Positions 4,364 to 45,231 of a DNA stretch of 64,000 nt are shown piece by piece. Numbering within the stretch: position 1 is the first letter of the stretch; the number at the start of each line of letters is the position of its first letter. The notes beneath the pieces were generated by a model, which was given only the letters and a program-made list of their open reading frames with translations, had not been told where the DNA came from and did no database searches. Both the position numbers and the translations under genes were made by a program. The stretch lies in NCBI GenBank assembly GCA_028711115.1, contig JAQTSV010000001.1, positions 902,032 through 966,031 of the forward strand, written 5' to 3'. The DNA is from Candidatus Omnitrophota bacterium. Lineage in GTDB: Bacteria; Omnitrophota; Gorgyraeia; Velamenicoccales; JABMQK01.

Positions 4364-5398
4364 TTATTTAAAATCATCCCAAGTGAATACCTCATCTTTA
4401 TTTTTATCCCTTATTAATTCTAAGCCGATTATCTTATTGTAATCCTTTGGAGAAGTACCGTATCCCGGCCTTTTTATCTCAATCATTTCTCGACAAATCT
4501 TCTCGCCTGCCTTCAAGTCTCTTGCTACAATTAAACTTTTACGAACCACTTTTATATTTTCCATTTCGCAATGCTGCGGTTTCTTTATACCATCTCCTAA
4601 GCCAATCTCTATATTGCGTATTGCCTTTACAAGCCGACCTAATTCTTCTGGCTCTGAAGACGCTTTATGATCAGGGCCAGGCATATTTTTATCAAGCGTA
4701 AAATGTTTTTCTATTATTGTGGCCCCTAACGCAACTGCCGCGACTGAAGCCTCTACTCCTATAGTATGGTCAGAATAACCCACGGGAAGGCAAAATTCTT
4801 TTTTAAGTGTCTGAATCGCCAAAAGATTCGCCTCTTTATAAGGACAAGGATAACTTGTTGTACAATGCATTAACGTCAAAGGTTTAAACATGGTGGTTTT
4901 CTTCAAACACCCTTGATTATCAATAATAATTTTAACCGCTTCTTTTACTTCTTTTAAGGTAGCCATTCCTGTTGAAAGCAATACAGGTTTGTTTCTTTGA
5001 GCAATATATTTAAGAAAAGGCAAATTATTTAAATCTCCGGAGCCAATTTTATAGGCAGGGACAATTTTTTCCAAGAAATCAACGCTTTCATAGTCAAAAG
5101 GCGTTGATAAAAATAATATACCTTTACGGTCGCAATATTGTTTCAGGGATATGAAAGATTCATAAGATAACTGGAGCCTCCTTAACATTTCCAACTGTCC
5201 TTCTTTAACTCGGGAAGAAGATAATTGGTATCTTGCTTTCTTTGTTAATCTGGAGGCTAAGTTTCCCGCTTTAAAAGTCTGAAATTTAATAGCATCAGCA
5301 CCTGCTTTATAGGCAGCATCTATTAATTCTAAAGCACAGGATTTCTTTCCATTATGATTTACGCCTGCTTCTGCAATTATAAATATTTTTTTATCCAT
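4364..5398 (-). CDS. neuB: N-acetylneuraminate synthase family (NeuB/LegI-type nonulosonic acid synthase) with C-terminal SAF domain
   Basis: IIAEAGVNHNG...AGADAIKFQTF, GYSDHT and EKHFTLD motifs. The C-terminal VVRKSLIVARDLKAGE stretch looks like a SAF domain. Confidence 0.85.
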   Translation of the reverse strand: MDKKIFIIAEAGVNHNGKKSCALELIDAAYKAGADAIKFQTFKAGNLASRLTKKARYQLSSSRVKEGQLEMLRRLQLSYESFISLKQYCDRKGILFLSTPFDYESVDFLEKIVPAYKIGSGDLNNLPFLKYIAQRNKPVLLSTGMATLKEVKEAVKIIIDNQGCLKKTTMFKPLTLMHCTTSYPCPYKEANLLAIQTLKKEFCLPVGYSDHTIGVEASVAAVALGATIIEKHFTLDKNMPGPDHKASSEPEELGRLVKAIRNIEIGLGDGIKKPQHCEMENIKVVRKSLIVARDLKAGEKICREMIEIKRPGYGTSPKDYNKIIGLELIRDKNKDEVFTWDDFK

Positions 5399-6872
5399 TA
5401 TTCTTGACGGCTACAAACGGAACTCCATATCCAACTATATTATCTTGGATATCATGTGTTACTACGCTTCCAGAACCAATTAAACAATGTTTTCCTATTT
5501 TTAAATATTGGTTAATCACTGCCCCTGCCCCGATATGGCTATAATCACCGATCTTTACTCCCCCACACAACACTGCCCCGGGGGCGATATGTACAAAATC
5601 CCCTATTTCACAATCATGATCGACAGACGAAGATGTATTTATGATGGCGTTTTTACCAATTCTTACGCCCGGATTAATTTTAACTCCTGCTGCGATAAAA
5701 GTACCCTCGCCTATCTTACAATCAGAAGCAATTACAGAAGAAGGATGAATTACCGTTGCTAAATTAAATCCTATCTTCTTTATATATTCATAAATTCTTA
5801 TTCTCGTAGAACAATCTCCGATCGAACCCACAGATATAAACGCGATTCTTAAGTTGTTTTTATATAAAGATACTAACTTTTCATCGCTTCCAATCATATC
5901 AACATTATTTTTTTCTTCACCGTATTTAAATTTTGGGTCAAATATTGCCCCTATTTGAAATTCACCAGACTTATGAATGGCATCAATAATCACATTGCAA
6001 TGCCCACCACCACCTATTAAAACTATTTTCTCTATATGTTTAGCAGGGATGTATTTTTCACTTATTTTAAATGGTTTTAATAAATTATCCTCTCTTATTT
6101 GTTCCGATATCCTCTCATTTATGACAGTAAATTCTTTTCCTTTGATTTCAATAGAAGCGCCATCGTAAGGCGGAAACCAAAAGGCCCTAATTTTCCTTTC
6201 TATTGCTTCAATATCGTCAGAAGGATAGATTTTGCGTAAATTCTCGAAATCTTGTTTAGATATATAACGGCCATCACCTTGAGGACAGCTCGGTAGCGAC
6301 CTCTTGCTATACGCTAAATCAATTACCTCTTTGAACAAATCGAGCATTACCCCTAAGCTCTTTTGTTCTAAAGAATATGCTGTCTCAATATCAGAGTTAA
6401 TATCAAATCGCTTAATTTTAATAATTTCACCTGTGTCAAAAGTTTCATCCATAACAAAATGCGCTGCCACGCCCCACGAGGATAACTGTTCAAAAATAGC
6501 GAAATTATATCCTCCCACCCCCCTGAAATCAGGCAGTGGTGCCGGATGAAAGTTAATACATCCTATCTTTGGTAAATCAATTAATGGCTTTTTAAGCCTC
6601 TTCCAAAAAAGAAAAGAAATAACCAAATCAATATTTTTCAGTGAATAACTTGAATCTAGAGCTTTTGTTTTATTTTTAAGGCGATCATACAACTCATCAT
6701 CTGTAACTACGGGTATCCCAAGTTTGCATGCCACATCAATGAGGCGTGTTTCTTGGGGAGCGGCTTCTTGCGTAGGTGCAACTACAGCCACAACCTCTAT
6801 GCCTTTGCTAAGGAGATATTTCAAGCCCTCCACAACAGCAGGTTTATCTTTCCCCATATAAATTACTCTCAT
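5391..6872 (-). CDS. Fusion protein: N-terminal formyltransferase domain plus C-terminal left-handed beta-helix sugar N-acyltransferase (PglD/NeuD/LegH-like)
   Basis: Residues about 1-270 carry INFHPAPLPDFRG (Asn/His) and DETFDTGEII (Asp), the formyltransferase catalytic motifs. Residues about 283-493 begin IVLIGGGGHCNVIIDAI (NeuD/PglD Rossmann-like N-domain), followed by hexapeptide repeats (IGEGTFI, IGKNAII, IGDFVHI, IGDYSHI, IGKHCLI). Confidence 0.75.
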   Translation of the reverse strand: MRVIYMGKDKPAVVEGLKYLLSKGIEVVAVVAPTQEAAPQETRLIDVACKLGIPVVTDDELYDRLKNKTKALDSSYSLKNIDLVISFLFWKRLKKPLIDLPKIGCINFHPAPLPDFRGVGGYNFAIFEQLSSWGVAAHFVMDETFDTGEIIKIKRFDINSDIETAYSLEQKSLGVMLDLFKEVIDLAYSKRSLPSCPQGDGRYISKQDFENLRKIYPSDDIEAIERKIRAFWFPPYDGASIEIKGKEFTVINERISEQIREDNLLKPFKISEKYIPAKHIEKIVLIGGGGHCNVIIDAIHKSGEFQIGAIFDPKFKYGEEKNNVDMIGSDEKLVSLYKNNLRIAFISVGSIGDCSTRIRIYEYIKKIGFNLATVIHPSSVIASDCKIGEGTFIAAGVKINPGVRIGKNAIINTSSSVDHDCEIGDFVHIAPGAVLCGGVKIGDYSHIGAGAVINQYLKIGKHCLIGSGSVVTHDIQDNIVGYGVPFVAVKNNG

Positions 6873-16471: not shown

Positions 16472-17470
16472 TTATACTTTTGCTTCTCTTAGATATTTTA
16501 TTGCGACTTCCGGCGGGGTAACTACTGCATAGAATCCTGTTCCCCATTCAAAACCTGCGATACCTGTCAGTCGGGGCATTATCTCTATATGCCAATGATA
16601 ATATTCGTGGTCTTCTTTGTCGCAAGGAGCTGTGTGTACAATAAAATTATAAGAATGATCATCCAAAGCAATCTTTAACCTTAGCAATGTTTCTCTTAAG
16701 ATCTTGGCTAATTCCAATCTTTGCCTTTCATTCATTTCACAAAAATGGCTGGCATGTTCTTTAGGAATTATATGAACTTCGAAAGGAAATCTGGAGACAA
16801 ACGGACAAAAAGAAACAAAGTATTTATTCTCAATCAAAATTCTTTCTTTTTCCTGCAATTCCTGCCTGATAATATCACAGAATATACAGCGCTCTCGATA
16901 TTCGAAATAAGTACTTGCCCCGGATAATTCTTCCAAGACATTTTTGGGAATCATGGGAAGGGCAATCAGCTGCGTATGGGAATGTTCCAAGGAAGCCCCA
17001 GCTATTGCACCACGGTTTTTAAAAATTAAAATATATCTGAATCTGCTATCTTTTTGTAAATCTATGGATCGACGGCAATACATATTAATACTCATTGCTA
17101 CTTCTTCATCGGTCAAATCCGTAATGTCCTTATTATGATAAGGCGTTTCTATTACTACTTCGTGAGCTCCTATCCCATTGGACATATCATAAATACCTAT
17201 GCCTCTTCTTTCCAAATCTCCCTCGATTTGTAAGGCGGGAAATTTATTCGCCACTGTCCTTACCAACCAACCAGGAGTATTGGGATGGGTTTCTTCATGG
17301 CGAACGGCATCTATCTCCGGAGGGGTCATAAATTCATTACCGTAACAAAACGGACAAGGGCCACTGCGGGGTATGTGTTCTTCCTTTGCGAAATCGCTGG
17401 GAATCTTAGGTGTATCTACATTAATTATCACCCATCTACCGCCAACAGGATCTTTTCTCAGCTCTGCCAA
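16472..17470 (-). CDS. galT: Galactose-1-phosphate uridylyltransferase family (GalT, HIT branch III), catalytically complete copy
   Basis: ELRKDPVGGRWVII start, CPFC zinc motif, HSHTQ (His163/His165 equivalent to E. coli HPHGQ), second half-site HWHIEIMPR. Confidence 0.8.
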   Translation of the reverse strand: MAELRKDPVGGRWVIINVDTPKIPSDFAKEEHIPRSGPCPFCYGNEFMTPPEIDAVRHEETHPNTPGWLVRTVANKFPALQIEGDLERRGIGIYDMSNGIGAHEVVIETPYHNKDITDLTDEEVAMSINMYCRRSIDLQKDSRFRYILIFKNRGAIAGASLEHSHTQLIALPMIPKNVLEELSGASTYFEYRERCIFCDIIRQELQEKERILIENKYFVSFCPFVSRFPFEVHIIPKEHASHFCEMNERQRLELAKILRETLLRLKIALDDHSYNFIVHTAPCDKEDHEYYHWHIEIMPRLTGIAGFEWGTGFYAVVTPPEVAIKYLREAKV

Positions 17471-17472
17471 AA

Positions 17473-18495
17473 TTACACCTCTATTTCTTTTAAATACTTA
17501 GCAGCATTTTCCGGCGGAATAGGACAAATGTAAAAACCCGTCCCCCATTCAAATCCTGCTACTCTAGTCAAACGCGGCATTATCTCTATATGCCAATGAT
17601 AATCTTCCTGGATTGTCTTCCAATAACCTGTTTTCTTTCTTTTGAAAGGGGCTGTATGTAGAATTAAATTAAACGGCGGATCGTTTAAACCCTTTTTCAA
17701 TTTGAGAAGAGTCTTCTTGATTATGCGGGCTAGATCCAGATTATTCTCAAAACTCAAATTATAGAAATCACAGGAATGTTTTTTGGGTAAAATCCACATC
17801 TCAAAGGGAAAACGTGAAGCAAAAGGAACAATTGTAATAAAACCGTCTATATCGAGGACCATGCGACTCTGTTCTTCTATTTCTTGCTTGATGAGGTCGC
17901 AGAATATGCAACGTTCATGAATATCATAATAGTGGCGGGCACCTATCAGTTCTTCCTTTACCCTTTTGGGTGTAACCGGTGTGGCAATTAGTTGTGTTCT
18001 GGAATGTTTGAATCTTCCGCCTCCTGCAGACCAGCCATAATTTTTAAATACAAGGACATATTTGAAACGCGAATCTTTCTCTAAGTCCTTGGTTCTTTCT
18101 ACAAAACAAGTCAGCACCTTGGCAATCTGTTCTTCGTTTAAATCAGCCAAATTACTGATATGCTGCGGTGTTTCTATGACTATCTCATGGGCACCTATGC
18201 CATTCATTACGTCATAGACACCTTTGCCTCTTCTGCCTAAATCTCCTTCGATTCTTAGGAAGGGGGCCTTGCTGGGAACCACTCTGACATCCCAACCAGA
18301 TGAATTCTTTTTCGTCCCGAATTTCCTTATGGCATATATCTCCGGCGGAGTGTTGCCTTCCCTGCCTTCACAAAACGGACATTCACCTTCCGGCGGACCG
18401 CCGTTTTCTTTGGCAAAATCATCGGGACGCTTTGCCCTCTCTACAGAGATAATAACCCATCGTCCAATAATCGGATCTTTTCTTAGTTCTGGCAT
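17473..18495 (-). CDS. GalT-family paralog with the nucleophile His replaced by Arg (HSRTQ)
   Basis: Same architecture as the neighbouring galT (ELRKDPIIGRWVII, CPFC, HWHIEIMPR), but the active-site pentapeptide reads KHSRTQ. The Arg codon AGA is at 17998..18000 on the minus strand. Confidence 0.75.
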   Translation of the reverse strand: MPELRKDPIIGRWVIISVERAKRPDDFAKENGGPPEGECPFCEGREGNTPPEIYAIRKFGTKKNSSGWDVRVVPSKAPFLRIEGDLGRRGKGVYDVMNGIGAHEIVIETPQHISNLADLNEEQIAKVLTCFVERTKDLEKDSRFKYVLVFKNYGWSAGGGRFKHSRTQLIATPVTPKRVKEELIGARHYYDIHERCIFCDLIKQEIEEQSRMVLDIDGFITIVPFASRFPFEMWILPKKHSCDFYNLSFENNLDLARIIKKTLLKLKKGLNDPPFNLILHTAPFKRKKTGYWKTIQEDYHWHIEIMPRLTRVAGFEWGTGFYICPIPPENAAKYLKEIEV

Positions 18496-18563: not shown

Positions 18564-19499
18564 TCAATCTAATTTGCTGCCTATTACAAATTTATGGCCT
18601 TGAATGAATTGCCAGGCACTAAGGCGCCTGCCAGAAGAAGACTGCAATTCTTTGATTAACAAAAAACCTTCCTTTGTGGCTACTAAAATACCTTTTTTAT
18701 CCAAAGAAATAATCGTTCCGCTAAGGCATTTATCCTTTTTCTGTATCTCGTTAATCACCTCGGCATCCCAAATTTTCAGCATTGTGCTTTTATAAAACGT
18801 AAACGCACCCGGCCAAGGCAAACACCCTCTGATTTGATTTCTTATTTGATGAGCCTGTTTATTCCAATTAATCCTCCCGTCTTCTTTCTTAAGTTTAGGT
18901 GCGTAACTCGCTTCTTTGTCTTCTTGTTTTATAAGACGAATTTCATTCTGATTAATTTTATATAATGCCTCCTGAAGAGACTTCGCTGCCAATTTGGATA
19001 TTTTTTCCTCTAAGGTTAAGACATTGTCAGAATAATCAATCCCGATTCCTTTCCTTAACAGAATGTTTCCTTCGTCCATTTTTTCATTCATCTTTATAAT
19101 TGTTATGCCTGTTTTTTCTTCGCCGTTTATTAAAGCCTGATTAATAGGGGCTGCCCCTCTGTATTTTGGTAATAAAGAGGCGTGGATATTCAAGGCAAAT
19201 AACTTTGGTATATCGAGTAAATCTCGAGAAAGGATCTTGCCAAATGAAAAAACAATAAAAACATCCGCATTTAATTTCTTGAGATATTCGATGGATTGTT
19301 TGGCTAAAATATCTTCCGGTTGGAAGATGTTCAGTTCTTTCTTTAAGGCAAATTCTTTAATTGGCGTAAAAGAAATGGGTAGGTGTCTGCCTTTTTTCTT
19401 ATCAGGTGCCGTTACCACGCAAGCAACGTCATTATTTTTAATTAAAGAATCCAAACTGGGAATAGCTATTTTACCGCTGCCGAAGAAAACTATTTTCAT
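18564..19499 (-). CDS. fmt: Methionyl-tRNA formyltransferase
   Basis: MKIVFFGSG start, NIHASLLPKYRGAAPI, MDEGNIL, plus a C-terminal Fmt beta-barrel domain. 311 aa. Confidence 0.9.
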   Translation of the reverse strand: MKIVFFGSGKIAIPSLDSLIKNNDVACVVTAPDKKKGRHLPISFTPIKEFALKKELNIFQPEDILAKQSIEYLKKLNADVFIVFSFGKILSRDLLDIPKLFALNIHASLLPKYRGAAPINQALINGEEKTGITIIKMNEKMDEGNILLRKGIGIDYSDNVLTLEEKISKLAAKSLQEALYKINQNEIRLIKQEDKEASYAPKLKKEDGRINWNKQAHQIRNQIRGCLPWPGAFTFYKSTMLKIWDAEVINEIQKKDKCLSGTIISLDKKGILVATKEGFLLIKELQSSSGRRLSAWQFIQGHKFVIGSKLD

Positions 19500-19520: not shown

Positions 19521-21371
19521 TCATGCCGGGTCGACATTTACTGTAATTATCACATTTCCGCTTCTGAATTTGCTCATCGATTTCTTAAAGACTCTGCTTA
19601 ACGATTCGATTTTGCTTGATTTTACTAATAAATATTTATAATATTTTTCTCTTAAGCGAGAACGCTGGGTTATATCAAAATTTGATACTTCTACTCCTTT
19701 TGTATTCATTCCCTTCAAAAACGAATACAACTTAGAATAAGACGCCTGAACACTTTTTTTATCAAAACTCCGAAGAGAAACAAGCCCGAGTTTATAATAC
19801 GGCGGCAGTTTTAAATCTTTTCTTGTGTTTAATTCTGTCTTGTAAAATATTTCCGGATCCAGATTCTTTAATGCTTTCAACAGATAGAAATCCTGATTCA
19901 GGCTGGAGCTGATCAGCATTTTTCTGAAAGTCATGATTAATAACTTGGACAATAATTGAAATGTCTCCTCGCCGGAATTGAAATCTCCCACGTTAAGCAG
20001 ATTATCCAGGCTCCAGATAATTGTTATGTCGGGTTTATACCCGGGGAAATTTAATATCTTTGTCGTAGCAATTACTATGTCGCAGTCCCTGATATCATTA
20101 TTTGTTTTTGGCAAAGCATCTAGTATGATAATTTTGGCCTGGGGAAAAAACCTTTTCAGATTGCTCTCTAGCTTTTCTATGCCGAAACCACCGTATTTTA
20201 CATAACCGGAATTACATTTCGGGCAGATTTCTACTAACTCTGTTTTAAAATTACAATATGGGCAGATCAGTTTTTTTTCTGAATAATCTAACCTTAAATT
20301 TCTGCTGCAGCGGCTGCACATAATTGTCTCTTTGCAATTCTTGCAATAAACAAATGTAGCAAATCCTTTCTTATTTAAAATTATCAAAATTTTTTCCTTG
20401 CTCTGTAGAGCTGAATCTATCTCCTTCTCCACCATTAAATCCATTTTATCCTTATAATTAATCCCCGTAAGCTGGATTTCTGGAAGAATTTTATTGCTAT
20501 CTGTCTCCTTCAATAAGACCTTCTTGCTTTGGATTAATTGATAAATCTGACTCGACGGCATTACTGACGAATAGATAACACCGCATCCTTCAATTTCGTA
20601 GCGCATCTGGGCAATTCTTGACGTATGATAATAAGGCACCTGGTCTTCTTTATAGGCATAGTTACTTTCATCGTCAATGATTATCAAATCCAAATTCTTC
20701 ACAGGCGCAAAAATACAGGAACGCGTTCCGATAATTAAATCTATCTCGTCTTTGGCCAAATCACTCCACAACTTAAGCATATCTTTTTTGGGAACCTTAC
20801 CGTGCCAAATGGCAATTCGTATACCTGGAATATCGGTAAAGCAGTTTTTGGCTTTATCAATCATTTTTATTTCCGGTACAACAAAAATAATTCTTTTTTT
20901 ATCTTTCATTACATTGATAATTTCATTCTTAAAATAAGCGTAGGTTTTATCATTTTCAATATTACGTATATAAATTAATTTACTTTTCTTATTCTTATCA
21001 TTCTGGCATTTTATCAAAGAAAAATCTGCGTTGATATTCCTGGATTTCTTTACGGCCTCTGGCAGCATCGATTCAATCGCCTCTCCCAGAGAACAAACAT
21101 AGTAATCTTTTATGCTGTGGGCCAATTGTAAATTATTGGCTGTTACGACGGGAAATTTATCTAGCGTATTGATGACGGGATTGAGTTTTTTTATTTTTGA
21201 TTTGGAGGAAAAACCTACGACAAAACCGATATTGTGTTTATTATTGAATAGCACATTCACCCGCATGCCCTGCTGTATCTTATTAATCAAATCCTTGGGT
21301 ATGGAATAATCGAATAACTTATCTATAGGTAAAGGAAGCGCCACTTTGGCGACTGCAAAATTTCTGTTCAT
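19521..21371 (-). CDS. priA: Primosomal protein N-prime (PriA) homolog with degenerate helicase motifs
   Basis: N-terminus AKVALPLPIDKLFDYSIP (3-prime-binding domain). Cys-rich zinc region CKNCKETIMCSRCS...CPYCN...CPKCN. The Walker A position reads RNIENDKT and the DEEH position reads DDES (see findings). Confidence 0.75.
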   Translation of the reverse strand: MNRNFAVAKVALPLPIDKLFDYSIPKDLINKIQQGMRVNVLFNNKHNIGFVVGFSSKSKIKKLNPVINTLDKFPVVTANNLQLAHSIKDYYVCSLGEAIESMLPEAVKKSRNINADFSLIKCQNDKNKKSKLIYIRNIENDKTYAYFKNEIINVMKDKKRIIFVVPEIKMIDKAKNCFTDIPGIRIAIWHGKVPKKDMLKLWSDLAKDEIDLIIGTRSCIFAPVKNLDLIIIDDESNYAYKEDQVPYYHTSRIAQMRYEIEGCGVIYSSVMPSSQIYQLIQSKKVLLKETDSNKILPEIQLTGINYKDKMDLMVEKEIDSALQSKEKILIILNKKGFATFVYCKNCKETIMCSRCSRNLRLDYSEKKLICPYCNFKTELVEICPKCNSGYVKYGGFGIEKLESNLKRFFPQAKIIILDALPKTNNDIRDCDIVIATTKILNFPGYKPDITIIWSLDNLLNVGDFNSGEETFQLLSKLLIMTFRKMLISSSLNQDFYLLKALKNLDPEIFYKTELNTRKDLKLPPYYKLGLVSLRSFDKKSVQASYSKLYSFLKGMNTKGVEVSNFDITQRSRLREKYYKYLLVKSSKIESLSRVFKKSMSKFRSGNVIITVNVDPA

Positions 21372-22465
21372 CGTCTCTCTATTAACTCTAAAACTCTGCG
21401 GCTGGAATCTGTTTGCCTGAAAACACTGATTTTATTCTTTATCGCCGTGATTTCGCCTGTATTATCTCTAAGAGATAAGATCTTTTCTTTTATCTTTTTG
21501 GGATTCTTGGGTATAAAGCCTAATCCGTGCTGGGTGATTATTCTGGCATTTTGTAATTCTTGTCCCGGGATAATGGAGAAAAATATCATCGGCAAATCCA
21601 TAACCAGACACTCAGAGATTGTCGAACCTCCCGGCTTGGTGACCACTACATCGCAAACAGCCATAACTTCCTGCACATAATCAATCCATCCCAAAACAAC
21701 CAAATTGCTATTATTCAGTTTTTTAAGACGGAAAAATAATTTTTCATTGTTACCGCAAATCACTATTACATTGATTTCTTTGGATAAAAGATTTACAATC
21801 TGATAAATAGGGCCTATGCCGATACCACCGCTCAATATTAAAGACGTAAAGCCACCTGTGTTTATCCCCAGCTTTTTTCTAACGGCATCTTTGTCTATCT
21901 GCCTTTGAAACTGTTTTCTGATGGGAATGCCTAAAACCTCAATTTTCTCTGAGTCAATTTGCTCAGAAATCAATATTTCTTTGGTTCTATCGCAAGCAGC
22001 AACATAGGTATCAATATTCTTGGCCAGCCAAAAACTATGCACGCCAAAATCTGTCACCACGGATATAATTCTTGTTTTTATTTGTTCTTTACCTTTTAGA
22101 TAAGAAACCAATTCATTTACTAGAAAGTGAGTAGAAATTATTACATCCGGTTGTTCGCTTTTTATAAAATCAAGAAATTTGTAACAAAACAGCTTACTGA
22201 TAAAACGCCTGAAATTACCGTTTATTAATCTTAGATATTTTGTATCTGCCAAGAAAAACAGAATCGACCAAAGCCACTTCATATTTGAAATGATAAAAAT
22301 ATAACCTTTCGAATACAGGAATCTGAAGAAATTGGGCGTGTAATCTAATACGTCGAGAAGAAAAACATTTTTCTTGTCATATATGTCAACCGCTGATTCG
22401 TAAATTGATTCAGCGATCTTCTTATGACCGAAACCGGCCGAGGCATGAATTATGAATATTTTCAC
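21368..22465 (-). CDS. MGDG-synthase-like GT28 glycosyltransferase (diacylglycerol glycosyltransferase family), copy 1
   Basis: MKIFIIHASAGFGHKKIAESI N-terminus is typical of the MGDG_synth domain. C-terminal TKPGGSTISE is the GT28 C-domain motif. Confidence 0.7.
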   Translation of the reverse strand: MKIFIIHASAGFGHKKIAESIYESAVDIYDKKNVFLLDVLDYTPNFFRFLYSKGYIFIISNMKWLWSILFFLADTKYLRLINGNFRRFISKLFCYKFLDFIKSEQPDVIISTHFLVNELVSYLKGKEQIKTRIISVVTDFGVHSFWLAKNIDTYVAACDRTKEILISEQIDSEKIEVLGIPIRKQFQRQIDKDAVRKKLGINTGGFTSLILSGGIGIGPIYQIVNLLSKEINVIVICGNNEKLFFRLKKLNNSNLVVLGWIDYVQEVMAVCDVVVTKPGGSTISECLVMDLPMIFFSIIPGQELQNARIITQHGLGFIPKNPKKIKEKILSLRDNTGEITAIKNKISVFRQTDSSRRVLELIERR

Positions 22466-23022
22466 TTTTTATTATTTAGATTTATTATAATATCACTGGC
22501 TTTATAGAGATTGACTGCAATAAAATCTGGCTGAACCTGCCATTCTTTTGCATTCTCCATCTTTTCCCTGCCTGATAAAACAAGTATCGTCTTACAACCA
22601 ACAGCTTTGCCTGTTTTTATATCCCTTATGCTGTCTCCGATAAAAAATGAATTCTTTATATCAACATCACCGGCGCTATTTAAAGCCTGCTCGATAAGCC
22701 CTGTCTTGGGTTTTCTGCAGCCGCAATCTTGTTCTTCGGTATGGATACAGTACAAAACTTTTTCTATTTTACCGCCTGCTTTGTCAATTTCTTCTGTCAT
22801 ATTCCGAGTAATATTGTCCAAAATCTCCTGGGAATACAGTCCTTTTGTCACACCGGCCTGATTTGAGATAACAAATAATTTATAGCCGGATTCAGAAAGC
22901 CGCTTAATCGCCTCTTTGGCCTTGGGCAAAAACTTAAATTCCTCCTGGCTGCAGACATATTTAAAGTGTCCTGGATATTTATTGATAACTCCGTCTCTGT
23001 CAAGGAAAACCAATCTGCTCAT
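22462..23022 (-). CDS. gmhB: D-glycero-D-manno-heptose 1,7-bisphosphate phosphatase (HAD family)
   Basis: FLDRDGVIN (DxDG), ISNQAG, C..H....CGCRKPKTGL zinc/loop motif, IGDSIRD. Confidence 0.8.
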   Translation of the reverse strand: MSRLVFLDRDGVINKYPGHFKYVCSQEEFKFLPKAKEAIKRLSESGYKLFVISNQAGVTKGLYSQEILDNITRNMTEEIDKAGGKIEKVLYCIHTEEQDCGCRKPKTGLIEQALNSAGDVDIKNSFFIGDSIRDIKTGKAVGCKTILVLSGREKMENAKEWQVQPDFIAVNLYKASDIIINLNNKK

Positions 23023-27661: not shown

Positions 27662-28354
27662 TCAAATCCACAGAATACCCGACACATATTTTGAGTTTTG
27701 GGAAATCCTGAAAGGAAAATGATTTATTACTTTATCAAGCTGAATATTTTTATTTAAGTCTGACTTTATCTCTAAGACCAGGGCCTCTGACACGGGATTT
27801 TGAAAATGCAGATTAGGATTAGGATAGACCCGCTGATCATAAACTCGCTGATTGTAGTCCAGTGTAATTCTGCAACTACTGTCAAGCGTCTCATAATAAT
27901 AACGATAATAACTGTTGATGATCATCGGTTCGCTTGCATAAAAGAATTCTACTTTTAATAAGTCAGTGAGATTTTCTTGTATAGTAAACCTAATTTCATC
28001 CCAATCAAGCCTGCTGAAATCGATTGGCTTATCTATCTCCTGAGATGCCTTGGTAATAAGCATGCCTTTTTTTTCCTTCAGCTCCAAACTCCCTTTTGCC
28101 TGAGAAACAGATTCCCCATACCATCGAAAACGCAGTTTTGAACGCCTGTTGCAGCCAGACAGAGCATCGTGATAATTAGAAAGATTGTAAGTATCGAAGT
28201 AGGCATTATTTACCTTGCGCATGGGATAGCGCTCGATGAAAGACTTGGGATGGAGTAAAATCTGCGTCTTCGCTTCGTCGAGTGTTAAATTCTTGATAAC
28301 CATTTTATATTCGTATCGCCAATTTTTTGTAGCAATCATTTCGTGTCTTTCCAT
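27662..28354 (-). CDS. VTC-domain protein (polyphosphate polymerase / triphosphate tunnel metalloenzyme-like)
   Basis: RYEYKMVI...VNNAYFDT...RSKLRFRWYG...LELKEKKG pattern is typical of bacterial VTC (Vtc4-like) domains. An alternative start (ATG at 28339) forms an ATGA overlap with the CotH-like stop. Confidence 0.65.
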   Translation of the reverse strand: MERHEMIATKNWRYEYKMVIKNLTLDEAKTQILLHPKSFIERYPMRKVNNAYFDTYNLSNYHDALSGCNRRSKLRFRWYGESVSQAKGSLELKEKKGMLITKASQEIDKPIDFSRLDWDEIRFTIQENLTDLLKVEFFYASEPMIINSYYRYYYETLDSSCRITLDYNQRVYDQRVYPNPNLHFQNPVSEALVLEIKSDLNKNIQLDKVINHFPFRISQNSKYVSGILWI

Positions 28355-31059
28355 TTCTCGTAAAGCTTATCAATGTCCACATCTTTTGCGGCACATTCTT
28401 TGCCGTTTGCCGTAATGAATGAACCAGTCTGGCACAGGACTTCTTCAGCCACTTGGTTAAAAGATACATTATTCGCCCTAATTTCTGCAGGACCGTATTC
28501 GGGTTTTTTCTGATAAGCAGCCAGACCAAACTTGGTGCCGGTAATTTGCATATTATCTATTTCTAGTTTTGACAAATCTTTTGACGCTGCACCGAAATCT
28601 GCGTATTCTACGACAATATTCTGCGCATAGACATCGCTTTTTTCGCCTACGCTTAATCCTTTATCGCCCAGGCGATAAGCCTTCATATTTTCTACTTTAA
28701 GATTGGTTCCGCTTACATCTAAGGCATCAGCCTTTATATCCATAAAAATCGTGTCTTTAACTATACCTTGGCAAAAATCATTATCAAGTGCGTCTGAGGA
28801 GATATTTTTAAACAGTGAATTATACATCGCATATCCAACGCGAACCAGATTAACCGCATCTTCGCAATGGTTATTTTGCGCTGTAAAATTATTAAAGACT
28901 GCAGTTGTGTTATAAAATGTTACTCCTCCAGTCAATATCCAACCGGCCCTCTCTATGCCAGTATAATTTTCCACTGTTACGTGATTTAAGATTGACTTGC
29001 CGTTAGCATTAAGCACAACCAACCCTCCCCATCCTGCTGCTTGCGAAGAAAGCCTGACGGGATTATCTTCGCTGCCTTCAAAAATAATAGGCGATGTAGT
29101 TAATAACACAGCCCCTTCTTCAAATTTCAAAGTTGTACCTGACATAGCCATCAGCTTTACATCCGGAGGTATTATCAAATCACCTTTTACTTGCCAGCTT
29201 CCCTGTTTTATAACTAACGCATTAGCCTCCTTATCAAAATCCAGAAAGGGATGTTTATTCAACAAGTCCTCTACAGTGTCCGTCTGCTGAGGAATACTCT
29301 CGATAAATTTCGGCATCGGGAATCTGATAATTTCTGTAAAATGATTCTTCGTGCTGCCTAAAAGCCGGCTTACAACTTCAACTTTTATCTTACTGTCAAG
29401 CTTGTTACCTACGATATATTTGGAAGGGACAAGAATGGAAGTATGATATATCTGTTTGTCTGCAGGCAATTGATATCCCGCCAAGCCATCCAAAATAACT
29501 CTTTGATTAACAGAAAAAGGTATCAGATTTTCGTCGCCAATTCTTATACCTATTAATTCTACCGGTAGATTAAGTAAATTGCTGATGCTTAAGTTAATGC
29601 GACTATCAGTACCTTCTTTATTAATTGAATTCTCGACATATGCCTCAACCTGAACAACGGGATTAATAACCTCGTATAAGAATTTCCTATTGAATTCTAT
29701 GGCCTCCCAATCAATTGTCTCTGGTTTTTCTCTCCATAATATTTTAAGCTGCTGGCTCAAAGGAACTTTCAACGTCTGTTTCAGATGCTCTAAATATTCC
29801 GGTGAAGTAATTCTCTCACATTCCTTTATGTATTTTTCCGCTATTTCCCTGTCTCTCAGCACCCGGAGAACCCAATCCTGCTGTCCGTAAGGATAACCGA
29901 AGAATCTCTTCCCGCTTGCAATTTCGCCATAATCCTCATTGCTTATCAGGCCTCCTGCTTTCGCGTTAAATCCTATGGGTTCTAATTTTGAGGTGATGGG
30001 ATTATAGTAAAAATTGATATTTTGCCAAAGCAAGGCATGGTCTCCTGCCCATAAGTAAGTTATGGCTAAAAATTTTGCCATTAAATCACTGTCAAAAACC
30101 TCGGAAGCCTTTTTCTCCCCGGAGATAAATGCCGCCAATAGGCCAAGCGCCGTGTCCCGCTGTTTTACCAAAGAAGGATCTTTTGCAACATACTCTTTAT
30201 TAAAAACATCCAAATCGACATTTAGCCATGCCCTGGGAGTAAGAATAAAATAGGATGGATTGACAATATCAAAAGATCTGTCTATACGGTCAGGCCAATC
30301 AGCCAACTGTTTCCAATAAGAATCCTCCTTAAATTTTACTATGACGCCTGTCCTTCTGTTCTGCGATTCGATAAGTTCTTTTGAAAAATTCTCCTCAAGG
30401 GCATATATTCCTTTATTCTTCCCATTAATTACCACATCAATAAATTCATATCGTGGCGCCAGAATCCCCTCTGATCTTAAATGAGTTAAATAAGCAAACT
30501 CATTGGCATAGGTTCTAAATTTAGGATCATGTATGGAAAACACCCTCATGCCTTTGAACCTTGCATCGCCTTCTGTCCTTATGCGGAATGCCCATTTATC
30601 TCCCGATATCTGTTCAATCACATCTCCTTTTAATCTAAGTTTTATAGGTATGGTCTGGTTTTCATATCTAATGGTAGCCGGTACAAATTCCTTTTCCTCC
30701 AGAAACAGAAAACCTCTCTTTACGGCATCATCTCTATTGTTGAGCAATTTCTTATAATTTTTAAATTTGATGTCTATATAAGTCTTAGGGATATCGGGTA
30801 TTATATAACTCTGGGCACGATAGATTAAACCCAGCGTTTGCCGTTTAAATTTATTCTTGGCGTTTTCAAAAGACCGCTGGAAATTGCCTTTTTTGATGGC
30901 TTTTTGTATTGTAATCCCGCCGCCAATAATGACCCCGCCAATGACAATTATATTTATAGCGAGGGAAAGTATTAAAAGGATACGCCACCAGCGTCTTCCC
31001 TTTATCTTCTTTCGTTCTACTCTATCTTTTTTAATTCTGCGTTCACTATGAATTATCAC
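28336..31059 (-). CDS. Membrane-anchored CotH kinase-family protein with C-terminal parallel beta-helix domain
   Basis: N-terminal TM WWRILLILSLAINIIVIGGVIIGG. Central region ...IDVVINGKNKGIYALEENFSKE... is CotH-like. The last 250 aa or so show repetitive N/G/V-rich turns typical of right-handed beta-helices. Sits between DUF4956 and VTC genes. Confidence 0.6.
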   Translation of the reverse strand: MIIHSERRIKKDRVERKKIKGRRWWRILLILSLAINIIVIGGVIIGGGITIQKAIKKGNFQRSFENAKNKFKRQTLGLIYRAQSYIIPDIPKTYIDIKFKNYKKLLNNRDDAVKRGFLFLEEKEFVPATIRYENQTIPIKLRLKGDVIEQISGDKWAFRIRTEGDARFKGMRVFSIHDPKFRTYANEFAYLTHLRSEGILAPRYEFIDVVINGKNKGIYALEENFSKELIESQNRRTGVIVKFKEDSYWKQLADWPDRIDRSFDIVNPSYFILTPRAWLNVDLDVFNKEYVAKDPSLVKQRDTALGLLAAFISGEKKASEVFDSDLMAKFLAITYLWAGDHALLWQNINFYYNPITSKLEPIGFNAKAGGLISNEDYGEIASGKRFFGYPYGQQDWVLRVLRDREIAEKYIKECERITSPEYLEHLKQTLKVPLSQQLKILWREKPETIDWEAIEFNRKFLYEVINPVVQVEAYVENSINKEGTDSRINLSISNLLNLPVELIGIRIGDENLIPFSVNQRVILDGLAGYQLPADKQIYHTSILVPSKYIVGNKLDSKIKVEVVSRLLGSTKNHFTEIIRFPMPKFIESIPQQTDTVEDLLNKHPFLDFDKEANALVIKQGSWQVKGDLIIPPDVKLMAMSGTTLKFEEGAVLLTTSPIIFEGSEDNPVRLSSQAAGWGGLVVLNANGKSILNHVTVENYTGIERAGWILTGGVTFYNTTAVFNNFTAQNNHCEDAVNLVRVGYAMYNSLFKNISSDALDNDFCQGIVKDTIFMDIKADALDVSGTNLKVENMKAYRLGDKGLSVGEKSDVYAQNIVVEYADFGAASKDLSKLEIDNMQITGTKFGLAAYQKKPEYGPAEIRANNVSFNQVAEEVLCQTGSFITANGKECAAKDVDIDKLYEKWKDTK

Positions 31060-33984: not shown

Positions 33985-35757
33985 TTAATGATTAGCCACT
34001 ATTTCGTAAACTTCGTCGTTATCAAATTTATTTATAAATTTGAAATCCTTTGATTTTGATAAATCCGGGGTTTCTCCTACTACGTCTATGGCTTCTTTAT
34101 TATTACCGGCCAAATAGTCATTCAGATGCAATATTACGTATTTCACTCCTAGGGCACTTAATATTTTCGGGGTAGCTGGATCAGTTATCCGTAATATACT
34201 CTTCTTAATCTCAGAACCCAGAGTCCCCGGTTCCGATCCCTCAATAATAGCCTTCCGGTGAAATCGCTGGTATAGAATGTTGTCTAGATTAATATATCCT
34301 TCTGCCATATCTCCTAAGGTCAAAGGATATTCGGCAATTACAAAAAATTCTTTTTGTTTACCTAGCCAGCTATATACCGGAGGACATTTGTCAATTTCCG
34401 TTACTCTTGAAGGTGGGATATTGGCAAAGTCTAAGAGAATTAAAAAAGAAAACAAACCTATAAAGAACTTATGCTTATGTTTTGTATTCATTAGACTGTT
34501 AAATCCATAACCGGCCAGTATGCTTATTGATAAAACACTAAGTACGCCAAACCTTGCATATGCCCTGAAAACAGGAAAAACTTTATATAAAAAGAAAGAC
34601 GGAAAATATATCTTAAAAAACAAAAGATTCCAATACGGAGGCATGGAAATAAGTACTGCTGAAATAAAAATAAATAAAAATAGCTGTTTAACAAATTTTG
34701 TTTGCTCAAGACTGTAATTTTGTACATGGGAAATTACATTCTCGCGCCTACGTATAGCAATAAATGACAAAATAAGCCCAACCCAACCCAAATAGAGAGT
34801 CTGCTCAATCGAACCCCGGCCAAAAAATATGCTGCCCTCCAGCGAACGCGCCAATCCTCCCCATAAAGGATGGTATTTGGAAGGAATCAGATACGCAAGT
34901 ATACTGGCGGATTGAGTGAACAAATAGTGAAATGACCTTATTGCAACATTCTGCGCTGCAGATATAGAATCATTACTGTGAGAAACTGTGACCGCTGCTT
35001 TTATCGAAGGCATAAGCAAAGGCAATACCATAAGTAATGATAAAATCCCCATTGTGAAGAAATTGATAAACAGCCTCGAGAATTCTTTAACAGGATATCT
35101 GTTTCTTAAATAATAAAAAACACAAAACAAAATATACAAAACAGAAAAAATAAAAATAATGTAGGAATATGTTAAATCGCTTAAAATAACCAGAGTCAAA
35201 CTTAATGAACAGAATATTAAATTACTGATATTCGGCTTATCTTTTAATTTCAGAAGGAAAAGTATGTATAACGGGATAAATTCTATAAACATAAGCCCGA
35301 AATGCTCCCAGGATTTATTTATATGATACGGGCTAAAGGTATAGATTAACCCTGAAATAAATGCCGCCGAATGGCGCTTGGTCAAATAAAAAACCAAAGC
35401 GTACATGCATAAAAACGAAAGAATAAAACTGCCTAATATCAGCGCGTTATAGGCAAATATCTCATTAAAAATAACGGAAAATAAATAAGCCGGAATCATA
35501 CAGAGAGGGAAAATCTGCGGGGCCATATATTTTACTCCAAATGGGTAATTGGTGAGTACATTGGTATCTACGTTTAAATTATTCTCTGCAGAATAATTAA
35601 ACCACCAAAAATGCCAAATGGCAGCTCTGTTATCCGTCCCATACAAAGGGCCATAAACAGCTTTGTCCATTTTGAACACCAATGGGAACGTAAAAACAAA
35701 AAGTATCACTAAAAAAGTAATAAAATAAATAATATGCTGTTTGGTATTTTTTCTCAT
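33985..35757 (-). CDS. Large polytopic membrane protein, candidate GT-C glycosyltransferase or polymerase
   Basis: 590 aa with about 12 or more TM segments in the first 450 aa, then a soluble C-terminal domain. No motif I can assign confidently. Embedded among GT2 genes. Confidence 0.4.
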   Translation of the reverse strand: MRKNTKQHIIYFITFLVILFVFTFPLVFKMDKAVYGPLYGTDNRAAIWHFWWFNYSAENNLNVDTNVLTNYPFGVKYMAPQIFPLCMIPAYLFSVIFNEIFAYNALILGSFILSFLCMYALVFYLTKRHSAAFISGLIYTFSPYHINKSWEHFGLMFIEFIPLYILFLLKLKDKPNISNLIFCSLSLTLVILSDLTYSYIIFIFSVLYILFCVFYYLRNRYPVKEFSRLFINFFTMGILSLLMVLPLLMPSIKAAVTVSHSNDSISAAQNVAIRSFHYLFTQSASILAYLIPSKYHPLWGGLARSLEGSIFFGRGSIEQTLYLGWVGLILSFIAIRRRENVISHVQNYSLEQTKFVKQLFLFIFISAVLISMPPYWNLLFFKIYFPSFFLYKVFPVFRAYARFGVLSVLSISILAGYGFNSLMNTKHKHKFFIGLFSFLILLDFANIPPSRVTEIDKCPPVYSWLGKQKEFFVIAEYPLTLGDMAEGYINLDNILYQRFHRKAIIEGSEPGTLGSEIKKSILRITDPATPKILSALGVKYVILHLNDYLAGNNKEAIDVVGETPDLSKSKDFKFINKFDNDEVYEIVANH

Positions 35758-43782: not shown

Positions 43783-45231
43783 TTATCTCAGTTGCCCTGA
43801 AAGAAACGCATAAATAATTTGTCCAATTTTATTGTTCAGCGCAAAATCACTGAACAACTTCCGCAAACCCGGAATTACAGTAACATAATAAACCACCGAA
43901 CCCAATGCGCCTCCCAAACGCCATATTAAGATTCTCTTATAGTAATAATTATGACCAAGTTTGGTAATTCTCTTTCTCTGTCTCTCCGTAAATTCCTTTG
44001 TTTCGAAAATAGGCATATCATCATAAGTAGACAAATTCCTTAGATATTTATTCTTATCTACCAGAAAACGGCCATTGCTTAATATCCACTCGTACGCCTC
44101 TGTGCCGGGATAAGGAATAAGATTGGAAAAATTTACATAATTAGAATCCAGGGATTTGGCAAATTTTAAAGTATCCAGCGCCTGTTTATACGTTTCGGTG
44201 GGATGGCCTATGATAAAATTAACGCAACTATCAATTCCTGCTTCTTTCGTCCATTTTACGGCATTGCGGACCTGATCTAATGTTATATTCTTTTTTATAT
44301 TCTTTAGGACTTCGGGGTTTCCGCTCTCACAGCCGAAAGCCAGAAAATAAAAACCCGCCTTTTTCATTTTCTTAAACAATTCTAAATTCACCCTATCAAC
44401 ACGCAGGCCGCTGTAGCATTGAAAACGGATTTTTAAACCGCTGTCTATTACTAAATCACAAATTTTATTTGCACGTTCGATATCCAAAGAAAAACAATCA
44501 TCATTTATATCAAATGCCCTGTAGCCTTCATTAAAGCGCTGTTTTATTTCCTGAAAAACATTTTCGGCTGAACGGCTTCGGAATGTCTTCCCCATAGATA
44601 ATAGCGTGGAACAATATGTACAGCTGTAAGGACAACCCCTGGAAGTAATCAGTGCGGTCGAATGATGTTGTGCGCAAAAATATTCGTTAACATCGAAAAG
44701 GCTGTAATCGGGAAAAGGCAGTTCATCTAAATTCAAATTATTCATAAATTCCCTGTCCTGATTTTCAATAATTTGGCCATCTTTTTTCCAAATAAGATTA
44801 TTTATATCGGAGAAATCTTTTTTATTCCGGGTAAGCGCCTCTGCCAATTCTAATAAACTATATTCTCCTTCCTTTTTAACCGCAAAATCTACTTTAGAAT
44901 CTCCTAAAACAGCACTCTTCGCTACAGAAACATGCGGACCGCCTAAAACCACAGGAATATCAAAATTAGTTTTTATTTTTTCTATACAATCTACGGCGTA
45001 ATCATAACAATAGCTGAAAGAAGTAACACCCACCAAATCAGGTCTAAATTCCTTAACCGAATCCACCAAAGAAAGGCTATTCTTTAAGCCGTCATCGTAA
45101 ACCTTCACTTCGTAGCCATGCTTTTTTAAAAAAGCTCCCAAATAGGCAATACCGATATGAGGATGCCCTGGCGGCGTATATTTATGTCCGAGTAAAGACT
45201 TGTTTTTGGGAATAATTAACTGAATTCTCAT
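43783..45231 (-). CDS. B12-binding-domain radical SAM enzyme (class B), copy 2
   Basis: GIAYLGAFL, LVGVTS, VLGGPH, then TSRGCPYSCTYCS (CX3CX2C). Confidence 0.8.
   Translation of the reverse strand: MRIQLIIPKNKSLLGHKYTPPGHPHIGIAYLGAFLKKHGYEVKVYDDGLKNSLSLVDSVKEFRPDLVGVTSFSYCYDYAVDCIEKIKTNFDIPVVLGGPHVSVAKSAVLGDSKVDFAVKKEGEYSLLELAEALTRNKKDFSDINNLIWKKDGQIIENQDREFMNNLNLDELPFPDYSLFDVNEYFCAQHHSTALITSRGCPYSCTYCSTLLSMGKTFRSRSAENVFQEIKQRFNEGYRAFDINDDCFSLDIERANKICDLVIDSGLKIRFQCYSGLRVDRVNLELFKKMKKAGFYFLAFGCESGNPEVLKNIKKNITLDQVRNAVKWTKEAGIDSCVNFIIGHPTETYKQALDTLKFAKSLDSNYVNFSNLIPYPGTEAYEWILSNGRFLVDKNKYLRNLSTYDDMPIFETKEFTERQRKRITKLGHNYYYKRILIWRLGGALGSVVYYVTVIPGLRKLFSDFALNNKIGQIIYAFLSGQLR

Follow-up and report, generated by a model that had tools for sequence, protein, structure and literature searches.

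Why PriA retains a motor is an open question in replication restart, and it is raised directly by an open reading frame in a 64,000-nucleotide stretch of DNA (hereafter the window) from a Candidatus Omnitrophota bacterium, which was originally predicted to encode a PriA with recognizable DNA-binding and zinc-binding regions and degenerate helicase motifs. Is the product a true PriA, has the motor in fact been lost, and what might a PriA of this kind still do?

The first of these questions has a clear answer, in that the open reading frame encodes a true PriA. It lies at 19521..21371 on the minus strand (as do all features described here), starts with ATG, and encodes 616 aa, coordinates and length being exactly as first given; an identical protein was found in the MAG GCA_028716625.1 (contigs of 983,760 and 1,566,446 bp). 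The protein scored 280.7 bits against the NCBIfam priA model TIGR00595 (cutoff 230.35) and, because it is divergent, fell far short of the cutoffs set for the NF0040xx equivalog models, which are narrower (for example, 342 against 813). Using HMMER, PriA chains of E. coli and Klebsiella in the PDB matched it with an E value of 1e-44. Pfam identified PriA_3primeBD (PF17764) at residues 9-104 (E = 3e-25) and PriA_C (PF18074) at residues 524-615 (E = 5e-7; 30.8 bits, cutoff 26.9), and the same scan of the protein gave no DEAD, ResIII, or Helicase_C match at cutoff. The AF2 model (pLDDT 89.8, pTM 0.88), in which the C-terminal domain is modelled confidently, contains the overall PriA fold, consisting of two RecA-like lobes together with the 3' DNA-end-binding domain (3'BD), the cysteine-rich region (CRR), and the C-terminal domain (CTD). 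When this model was used in a Foldseek search, the top nine matches were all PriA (TM 0.67-0.87), led by E. coli PriA (8fak_H, TM 0.87) and an E. coli PriA construct lacking the winged helix (6dcr, TM 0.77), whereas the best non-PriA fold, Mfd, reached a TM of only 0.34. Both RecA-like lobes are thus predicted by the model still to fold exactly as PriA.

In the original prediction, motifs I, II, III, V, and VI of the helicase ATPase had been placed and judged degenerate. A HMMER alignment to the E. coli and Klebsiella PriA structures and two MAFFT alignments, by which we set the motif positions, put them at the same sites and bore out the loss of all five, each being non-consensus when formally aligned with PriA. 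Motif I (Walker A; residues 136-146, 20934..20966) reads RNIENDKTYAY against GVTGSGKTEVY in E. coli, and the residues G224, T226, S228, G229, K230, and T231, which are 93-100% conserved in canonical Omnitrophota PriAs, are found in 0-9% of the degenerate clade. The "DKT" at this site is, on the alignment, a coincidence rather than a remnant, because relatives carry NETV, EDMT, DNST, or NAET there. Motif Ia survives as a remnant, VVPEIKMID (20856..20882), in which "PE" is kept and the equivalents of T258 and Q260 are lost. In motif II (residues 231-237), IIDDESN stands against VIDEEHD, with DEEH changed to DDES such that the equivalent of the catalytic E321 is Asp (clade-wide, only 36% have Glu) and the His is Ser; the stretch at 20601..20687 continues from this motif into a retained aromatic-rich loop, YKEDQVPYYH…R. 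Motif III (20547..20576) reads IYSSVMPSSQ against ILGSATPALE, its core being SSVMP rather than the GSATP of E. coli. Motif V (20031..20081), DIVIATTKILNFPGYKP against ILIGTQMLAKGHHFP, is aligned as IGTQMLAKGHHFP in E. coli and IATTKILNFPGY in the window protein, which has ATTKILNF where the active form has GTQ…G; here the canonical forms have G538, Q540, M541, A543, and G545 at about 100%, the degenerate clade at 0-26%. Motif VI (19920..19958), QLLSKLLIMTFRK, has lost its arginine fingers together with a five-residue loop, KLLIMTFR and the deletion replacing the QVAGRAGRAG of E. coli, and Q580, G583, R584, G586, and R587 go from 100% in canonical forms to 0-11% in the degenerate clade, with GRxGR absent from all 114 degenerate relatives in a pattern scan. 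Beyond what had been predicted, the Q motif is deleted in the window protein, the canonical "L..EEQ" segment being missing. Of the positions at which 45 canonical Omnitrophota PriAs agree to 90% or more, 59 are lost in the degenerate clade, and these fall in Q, I, Ia, II, III, V, and VI. Nor are intact Walker motifs offset from these sites, since a regular-expression scan of the full protein found no [AG]xxxxGK[ST], GK[ST], hhhhDE, or GRxGR at any position. Judged by these alignments, every residue class for ATP binding or hydrolysis is gone from the window protein, and we infer that ATPase activity has been lost.

The 3'-end-binding domain, the "PEI" of motif Ia, the four CxxC pairs, and the C-terminal domain, all of which had been called recognizable, are present by Pfam and alignment. 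In the 3'BD (residues 9-104, 21060..21347), F20-D21-Y22, conserved to 94-97% in the degenerate clade, aligns with F16-D17-Y18 of E. coli, where D17 has been reported as an important residue in binding of the nascent leading-strand 3' end (PMC5175346). Several DNA-contact elements of the lobes are also kept, namely motif Ib (GTRSxxFAP), the aromatic-rich loop (YK..Q.P.YH), motif IV (LNKKGF), and motif Va (LN..DF). Within motif Ib (IIGTRSCIFAP, 20703..20735), G215, T216, R217, S218, F221, and P223 are identical to E. coli 302-310 and 89-99% conserved in the degenerate clade. Conservation is 90-100% for Y240, K241, P246, Y248, and R257 of the aromatic-rich loop, an element with a role in DNA coupling in PriA (PMC5175346). 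The window's own sub-clade departs from its relatives at some of these otherwise retained sites (HARD to HTSR, NRRGF to NKKGF, and DFRS to DFNS), and its lobes may therefore grip DNA more weakly than those of relatives. The CRR (20205..20348), inserted in lobe 2, retains four CxxC pairs forming two predicted Zn sites; its eight cysteines (C343, C346, C352, C355, C370, C373, C383, and C386) show 100% conservation across 114 relatives and align with C436, C439, C445, C448, C463, C466, C476, and C479 of E. coli. In the C-terminal domain (residues 524-615, 19527..19802), P524, R534, R574, D614, and P615 are each conserved to at least 92%. The residues that form the SSB-tail pocket of Klebsiella PriA (S696, R697, V698, and R699) are, by alignment, not conserved even in canonical Omnitrophota PriAs.

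The protein had also been described as short, and this holds, for two reasons: PriAs of the whole phylum lack the winged-helix domain, and those of the degenerate clade are further shortened by loss of the Q-motif segment. A short linker (residues 105-131, 20979..21059) takes the place of the winged-helix domain and the Q-motif helix. The 3'BD is followed by a linker of 27-29 aa in the window protein and 29 aa in the degenerate clade, compared with 119 aa in E. coli and some 55 aa in canonical Omnitrophota PriAs, the canonical values here and for retained-site conservation being slightly blurred because the group used, P0115-P0120, includes the degenerate P0116. Between the 3'BD and lobe 1, a winged-helix domain is absent from the window protein and canonical Omnitrophota PriAs alike; it is therefore not a universal, defining feature of PriA.

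Relatives of the window protein share its degeneration, which we found in at least 115 distinct homologues and at least 35 species-representative Omnitrophota genomes, with a GITASGKT Walker A counted as canonical in the classification. In a neighbor-joining tree the degenerate proteins group in one clade, which branches from within the canonical Omnitrophota PriAs; long-branch attraction may exaggerate this monophyly. Their genes are automatically annotated as "primosomal protein N'" or "replication restart helicase", labels that overstate the activity of degenerate-clade PriA. Because dS was saturated between the window gene and that of P0004 (57% identity, the nearest relative with DNA available), we used closer pairs within the window's sub-clade for dN/dS. 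Pairs in the degenerate clade gave ratios of 0.11-0.20 for the whole gene and 0.05-0.22 for the helicase lobes; for P0004/P0005, in the window's own sub-clade, dS was 0.24 and ω 0.20, with the CRR the lowest domain at 0.05 (0.03–0.21 across other pairs). The degenerate priA is under purifying selection, helicase lobes included. The length of the open reading frame is uniform across 114 relatives (median 616 aa), at divergences down to about 30% identity. We thus conclude that the degenerate priA is functional rather than decaying.

What, then, is the function? The original prediction of a helicase-dead PriA that may still recognize forks and recruit the loader of the replicative helicase is supported by the lost ATP sites, the conserved binding modules, purifying selection, and the intact predicted fold, and we think it probable that the gene is a vertically inherited priA orthologue without an SF2 motor, whose product acts as an ATP-independent scaffold for fork recognition and primosome assembly, or "pseudohelicase". 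From its conserved surfaces, the window protein would be expected to bind both forks and DnaB. Motifs Ia, Ib, IV, and Va and the aromatic-rich loop would let the dead helicase shell keep hold of the lagging-strand template or duplex, while the two-zinc CRR and the CTD would offer docking surfaces for DnaB, with or without a loader, and possibly for SSB; DnaB would then be reloaded without PriA-driven unwinding. The protein would thus still recognize abandoned forks and nucleate helicase reloading, behavior that has been shown for E. coli PriA K230R and for Deinococcus PriA.

One could also envision that motor loss in this clade was adaptive, a switch to restart by a different mechanism and not mere tolerance of a dispensable activity, although we regard this as unlikely. 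The AF2 model is closer to the fork- and PriB-bound structure 8FAK (TM 0.87) than to apo 4NL4 (TM 0.76), and under such a switch the dead lobes might be locked in a fork-engaged conformation, making PriA a constitutive, ATP-independent platform for loading DnaB. The sister sub-clade has, where a P-loop would carry Lys-Thr, a conserved Arg-Trp, which would perhaps mimic bound nucleotide. A switch of this kind could possibly be tied to the biology of the lineage, with its small cells and genomes and an extreme co-orientation of genes with replication, which would reduce head-on conflicts.

Alternatively, the PriA fold may have been repurposed for a structural DNA-binding or regulatory role, or as a partner in a glycan-biosynthesis operon, and no longer serve replication restart. 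Consistent with such a role, priA lies within, and is translationally coupled to, a long run of glycosyltransferase and polysaccharide genes that share its orientation: the stop codon of the upstream MGDG-synthase-like glycosyltransferase gene (21368..22465), itself preceded by a HAD phosphatase gene (22462..23022), overlaps the priA start (ATGA), which indicates operon coupling. The conserved Arg-Trp of the sister sub-clade could be taken in the same sense. However, canonical PriAs have the same neighborhood, which is therefore uninformative about the degenerate form: the order HAD–MGDG_synth–priA–fmt(–GalT-like) is common to canonical and degenerate loci, and fmt (methionyl-tRNA formyltransferase; 18564..19499 in the window, with Pfam Formyl_trans_N and Formyl_trans_C) is the downstream neighbor of priA in almost every one of the at least 80 related loci, of both forms, with a long enough contig. 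Rfam and tRNA scans of the window found nothing. The degenerate clade has only about 6 positions with a conservation of its own, all of them conservative changes, and the restart-relevant parts (the 3'BD pocket, the CRR, and the CTD) are the most conserved of the protein. PADLOC and PHROG searches returned no defence-system or phage match, and an affiliation with either was rejected on that ground. With so few clade-specific positions, no such matches, and unchanged synteny, the repurposing that had originally been offered as the alternative finds no support, and we consider it quite improbable.

A further possibility is that the gene is an accessory or decaying paralogue, redundant and drifting while a canonical priA elsewhere in the genome does the real work. 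Degenerate PriAs have longer branches than canonical ones (root-to-tip distance 0.79 against 0.62), their ω is about twofold above that of canonical PriAs, and the search for a second PriA was confined to the window and the flanks of related loci. Within that scope, neither the 64 kb window nor the flanks (±8 kb) of the at least 80 related loci contained another PriA-like sequence; these loci, listed in a GTDB scan, come from as many different assemblies, to which the window's genome and the relatives closest to it (42-58% identity) do not belong. Among the matches listed, each of 35 degenerate-bearing species-representative assemblies has one PriA locus, by a pattern that matches both forms. 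A protein search with the canonical P0120 gave no match on the contigs of 1,566,446, 983,760, or 1,873,723 bp among the 120 matches listed, a weak test in that all of these were at least 69% identical to P0120 and represent a tight clade only. The degenerate gene holds the slot that canonical PriAs hold, between the HAD and glycosyltransferase genes and fmt, so that the window gene is the positional orthologue in the ancestral priA slot; its ω of 0.1-0.2 is far below 1, and at identities as low as about 30% its reading frame is still intact and of uniform length. A decaying paralogue beside a canonical priA, the circumstance under which the original reading would fail, is thus not what these loci contain, and such an explanation is very unlikely.

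Finally, that the lobes remain under purifying selection could suggest a motor still active on ATP or another nucleotide through non-canonical residues or a second site, but this is exceedingly improbable, given that the positions for phosphate binding, Mg binding, the catalytic base, adenine recognition, and the arginine finger are lost together and vary freely among relatives, that the motif VI loop is deleted, that no P-loop pattern occurs anywhere in the window protein, and that a single K230R suffices to abolish the activity of E. coli PriA.

The favored reading, a PriA orthologue that probably acts as a motor-less scaffold, bears on the question of motor retention since the loss spans a large and diverse clade while sister lineages of the phylum have, in that same slot, a PriA with a textbook motor. 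Omnitrophota PriAs thus offer a comparative system in which to ask which genes, genome features, and lifestyles co-vary with motor loss, candidate genes being Rep/UvrD-type helicases, RecG, and DciA or other loaders, and they could show which PriA surfaces suffice for helicase reloading.

Compared with canonical PriA (TIGR00595; 4NL4, 6DGD, and 8FAK), the window protein has the same domain order (3'BD, lobe 1, lobe 2 with the two-zinc CRR, and CTD), the same predicted fold (TM 0.87 to 8fak_H), and the same genomic slot beside fmt, but it lacks the winged helix, the Q motif, and functional motifs I, II, III, V, and VI. The E. coli construct of PDB 6DCR is likewise without a winged helix but is engineered and retains an active motor. 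Some actinobacterial PriAs may be flagged in UniProt as having no detectable helicase domain; a literature search on other motif-less PriAs (Actinobacteria, Rv1402) found nothing relevant. The E. coli variants K230R (priA300) and K230A/D have no ATPase, helicase, or translocase activity, yet primosomes assemble in vitro, the K230R protein supports restart in vitro, and priA300 cells are nearly wild type by way of PriA-PriB (PMC5778457). Those variants were engineered, each by a single substitution that leaves the rest of a PriB/DnaT-dependent motor protein, winged helix included, intact, whereas the window protein represents a natural loss of multiple motifs in a PriA that has no winged helix.

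PriB and DnaT are not expected in the Omnitrophota lineage, and with both lacking PriA probably contacts DnaB directly. In this it would resemble the PriA of Deinococcus, where PriB and DnaT are also lacking and direct PriA-DnaB contact has been shown; the D. radiodurans protein has no ATPase or helicase activity, yet binds forks and DnaB (Lopper et al. 2015, PMC4504706). The Deinococcus-Thermus "pseudohelicase" is likewise a PriA orthologue with non-consensus Walker A and B motifs and retained DNA-binding regions; it is presumably the only PriA of its genome, as the window protein may be of its own. By its descent from canonical PriA and its lost catalytic motifs, the window protein fits a PriA pseudohelicase in the sense of Lopper (2015), as far as sequence can tell. 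The Omnitrophota loss differs in being of independent origin, nested among canonical Omnitrophota PriAs, and, set against Deinococcus-Thermus PriA, in which motifs I and II are described as poor and GKT as carrying R for K (PMC4504706), it goes much further: GKT is absent, Q, III, V, and VI are lost, and deletions have removed the motif VI loop and the Q segment. The Omnitrophota clade is a second natural case of a motor-less PriA after Deinococcus, independent and more extreme.

The gene occupies 19521..21371 on the minus strand, where the original prediction had put a PriA homolog, and encodes 616 aa from an ATG that shares an ATGA with the stop of the gene before it. At residues 9-104 Pfam detects the PriA 3'-DNA-binding domain (3'BD; E 3e-25), and at residues 524-615 the PriA C-terminal domain (CTD; E 5e-7), with no DEAD, ResIII or Helicase_C match above cutoff. 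The protein passes the NCBIfam priA model TIGR00595 (280.7 bits, cutoff 230.35) and, as a phmmer query against PDB sequences, matches E. coli and Klebsiella PriA at ~1e-44, with a ~90-residue gap between the 3'BD and lobe 1. Since every defining feature tested is present except the winged-helix (WH) domain, it belongs to the PriA family. Identical proteins occur on contig JAQUPK010000001.1 (983,760 bp) of the Candidatus Omnitrophica/Omnitrophota MAG GCA_028716625.1 and on a 1,566,446-bp contig of a further assembly.

In an alignment of E. coli K-12 PriA with 120 database homologues (P0001-P0120), the E. coli and window proteins read GVTGSGKTEVY and NIENDKTYAYF at motif I, VMVPEIGLT and FVVPEIKMI at Ia, VIDEEHDSSYK and IIDDESNYAYK at II, ILGSATPALE and IYSSVMPSSQ at III, ILIGTQMLAKGHHFP and IVIATTKILNFPGY at V, and QVAGRAGRAG and KLLIMTFR at VI. 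As in the placement of Walker A first proposed, phmmer aligns the DKT of this protein with E. coli G-K230-T231. Searching its full length for [AG]xxxxGK[ST], GK[ST], hhhhDE and GRxGR gave zero matches; no intact motif is therefore offset from these sites, and the claim of degeneracy stands. The idea that DKT is a constrained relic of Walker A was rejected because close relatives carry NETV, EDMT, DNST or NAET there.

A survey of relatives found the same degeneration in 115 of the 120 best database homologues (P0001-P0114 and P0116; 30-58% identity, with a median of 616 aa); the remaining five (P0115, P0117-P0120; ~666 aa), also from Omnitrophota, are canonical, with textbook GxTxSGKT, DEEH, GSATP, GTQMIAKG and QVAGRAGR. 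Scanning GTDB species-representative genomes gave at least 80 PriA loci, each in an assembly of its own and almost all in Omnitrophota MAGs; among the matches listed, which do not include the window's own genome, at least 35 loci are degenerate in motifs Q, I, V and VI jointly and at least 45 are fully canonical, the sole "mixed" locus being a gene cut off at a contig end. Several contigs with degenerate PriA (P0019; loci L007, L016, L024, L027 and others) carry the names "Thermoproteota archaeon" or "uncultured Planctomycetales/Planctomycetia", probably through binning or naming artefacts, because PriA sequence and synteny group them with Omnitrophota. In a neighbour-joining tree, the degenerate PriAs form one clade nested within the canonical Omnitrophota PriAs, on longer branches (mean root-to-tip 0.79 vs 0.62). 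In its earliest-branching members (P0104, P0106) the linker is still the longer one and AGTQ survives from motif V, suggesting that decay was stepwise once the ATP site had been lost. Degeneration has gone furthest in the window's sub-clade (P0001-P0024), where the motif II DEE and motif III G-S are gone too; its sister sub-clade keeps both.

When 45 canonical and 53 degenerate Omnitrophota PriAs were compared, 59 positions at least 90% conserved in the former were found to be lost in the latter, among them Q203; G224, T226, S228, G229, K230, T231 and E232; T258 and Q260; E321; R334; G355, A357 and T358; G538, Q540, M541, A543 and G545; and Q580, G583, R584, G586 and R587. The Q-motif segment is deleted, as are five residues of the motif VI loop. 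The lost positions are the SF2-motor residues for nucleotide binding, catalysis and coupling. Retained at 85-100% are the 3'BD F-D-Y pocket (E. coli F16, D17, Y18), motif Ib (GTRSxxFxP), the aromatic-rich loop (Y-K…P-x-Y…R), motifs IV (LNR/KxGF) and Va (LN..DFR), all eight cysteines of the cysteine-rich region (CRR), and CTD residues. The sister sub-clade (P0025-P0114, L005-L036) reads D-L-D-G-x-x-R-W-D-I-Y at the former P-loop, a conserved Arg-Trp replacing the canonical Lys-Thr (aligned to window residues 142-144); this pair, absent from the window's own sub-clade (Arg 66% and Trp 53% over all degenerate sequences), may be a pocket-filling substitution.

Selection maintains the dead helicase lobes. 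Among the closest degenerate pairs, dN/dS was 0.11-0.19 for the whole gene, 0.05-0.19 for the helicase lobes and 0.03–0.21 for the CRR, and among the closest canonical pairs 0.03-0.17, 0.02-0.10 and 0.02–0.10, perhaps a roughly twofold relaxation of selection on the lobes. Within the window's sub-clade, the corresponding values were 0.20, 0.17-0.22 and 0.05 for P0004/P0005 (dS 0.24) and 0.13, about 0.10 and 0.10 for P0012/P0013.

A confident AlphaFold2 model (68-sequence alignment; pLDDT 89.8, pTM 0.88) preserves a β1–loop–α1 topology where the P-loop used to be, and its top nine Foldseek matches are all PriA structures, led by 8fak_H (E. coli PriA bound to fork DNA and PriB; TM 0.87, rmsd 3.9), the ΔWH construct 6dcr (TM 0.77) and the ADP-bound crystal form 4nl4 (TM 0.76, rmsd 10.7); the next family is Mfd (TM 0.34). 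The better superposition on the fork-bound than on the ADP-bound form may simply reflect the absent WH domain. Present in E. coli and Klebsiella PriA, this domain is missing even from catalytically intact Omnitrophota PriAs (P0115, P0117-P0120, L033-L083; ~666 aa). Between the 3'BD and β1, E. coli PriA has a linker of 119 aa, canonical Omnitrophota PriAs one of ~55 aa and the degenerate clade one of 29 aa; because it is already ~55 aa in the canonical proteins, absence of the WH domain is a phylum trait independent of motor loss, and the extra 26-aa shortening is that of the Q-motif helix.

The loss of motor residues, with the 3'BD pocket, DNA-contact motifs, CRR and CTD kept, supports the main interpretation of the original prediction, a helicase-dead PriA that may still recognize forks and recruit the helicase loader. 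We consider it quite probable that the protein acts in restart without unwinding DNA itself: the 3'BD, together with the face of the inert lobes that contacts DNA, would recognize abandoned forks or D-loops, and the CRR and CTD surfaces would bring in the replicative helicase, alone or together with a loader. In E. coli, binding of the leading-strand 3' end depends in part on D17 of the 3'BD, and DNA is contacted by the aromatic-rich loop (PMC5175346). E. coli PriA K230R (priA300) lacks ATPase, helicase and translocase activity, yet supports primosome assembly in vitro and near wild-type growth via the PriA-PriB route (PMC5778457), and D. radiodurans PriA, devoid of both ATPase and helicase activity, binds to ssDNA, to forks and to DnaB (PMC4504706). 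That the Omnitrophota protein has been repurposed seems unlikely; positions conserved specifically in the degenerate clade number only ~6, every one a conservative change.

One could also envision an accessory paralogue, with a canonical priA unseen elsewhere in the genome, a reading we regard as rather improbable. The canonical P0120 locus is ordered HAD phosphatase, MGDG-synthase-like glycosyltransferase, (UDG), priA, fmt; the window, P0086, P0005 and P0012 loci run HAD, MGDG_synth, degenerate priA, fmt and two GalT-like genes. At P0013 the upstream genes differ and priA–fmt–two GalT-like genes is kept; on the short P0004 contig priA–fmt is followed by a GAPDH fragment. Across at least 80 loci, both PriA forms have the same neighbours wherever the contig is long enough, and no second PriA-like match was found within ±8 kb of any of the 80 loci listed or in the 64-kb window. 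The degenerate gene is thus best read as the priA orthologue, not a paralogue. A cryptically active motor is very improbable, as the protein fails as an active SF2 helicase on every sequence feature considered.

At the P0120 locus (L003), the uracil-DNA glycosylase gene (5269-5940) lies between the MGDG-synthase-like gene and priA, and a B12/radical-SAM gene lies upstream of priA; many canonical loci have a similar gap of ~0.7-1 kb between the MGDG-synthase-like gene and priA, which abut or overlap in degenerate loci. The tandem GalT-like/HIT-superfamily paralogues downstream of fmt (window 16472-18495, two ORFs; GalP_UDP_transf and DUF4931/DUF4921) are kept, one or both, in many Omnitrophota loci (L004-L084) with either PriA type. 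Over window positions 1-64000, gene co-orientation is unusually complete: among 59 ORFs that reach 150 aa, 57 run on the minus strand, both plus-strand ORFs are nested inside minus-strand genes, and GC skew is negative in all 2-kb bins. The same span has no tRNA or Rfam family. Two large minus-strand ORFs (28336-31059, 907 aa; 33985-35757, 590 aa) without a Pfam match at E<=1e-5 are embedded in an extended cluster of genes for glycosyltransferases and polysaccharide biosynthesis, and three paralogous B12-binding radical-SAM genes within ~10 kb (43783-45231, 49428-50879 and 51843-53255, minus strand), similar to the one at L003, neighbour sugar-nucleotide and glycosyltransferase genes.

Certain actinobacterial PriAs may lack detectable helicase domains, according to a UniProt caution. 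Across 100 genera from 18 phyla, Lopper and colleagues saw departures from the motifs only in Deinococcus-Thermus (PMC4504706), a 2017 review says likewise ("except in Deinococcus"), and in the literature searched both "Omnitrophota" and "PriA" occurred only in a list of Candidatus names, with each word once. The Deinococcus-Thermus PriA pseudohelicase is the nearest known counterpart; it is described as having poor motifs I and II and a K→R change in GKT. Compared with that description, the motif loss in Omnitrophota arose separately and has gone much further. These proteins would thus add to the known class of PriA pseudohelicases a new member that evolved on its own and is more extreme, of value mainly for comparison with its canonical sister lineages.
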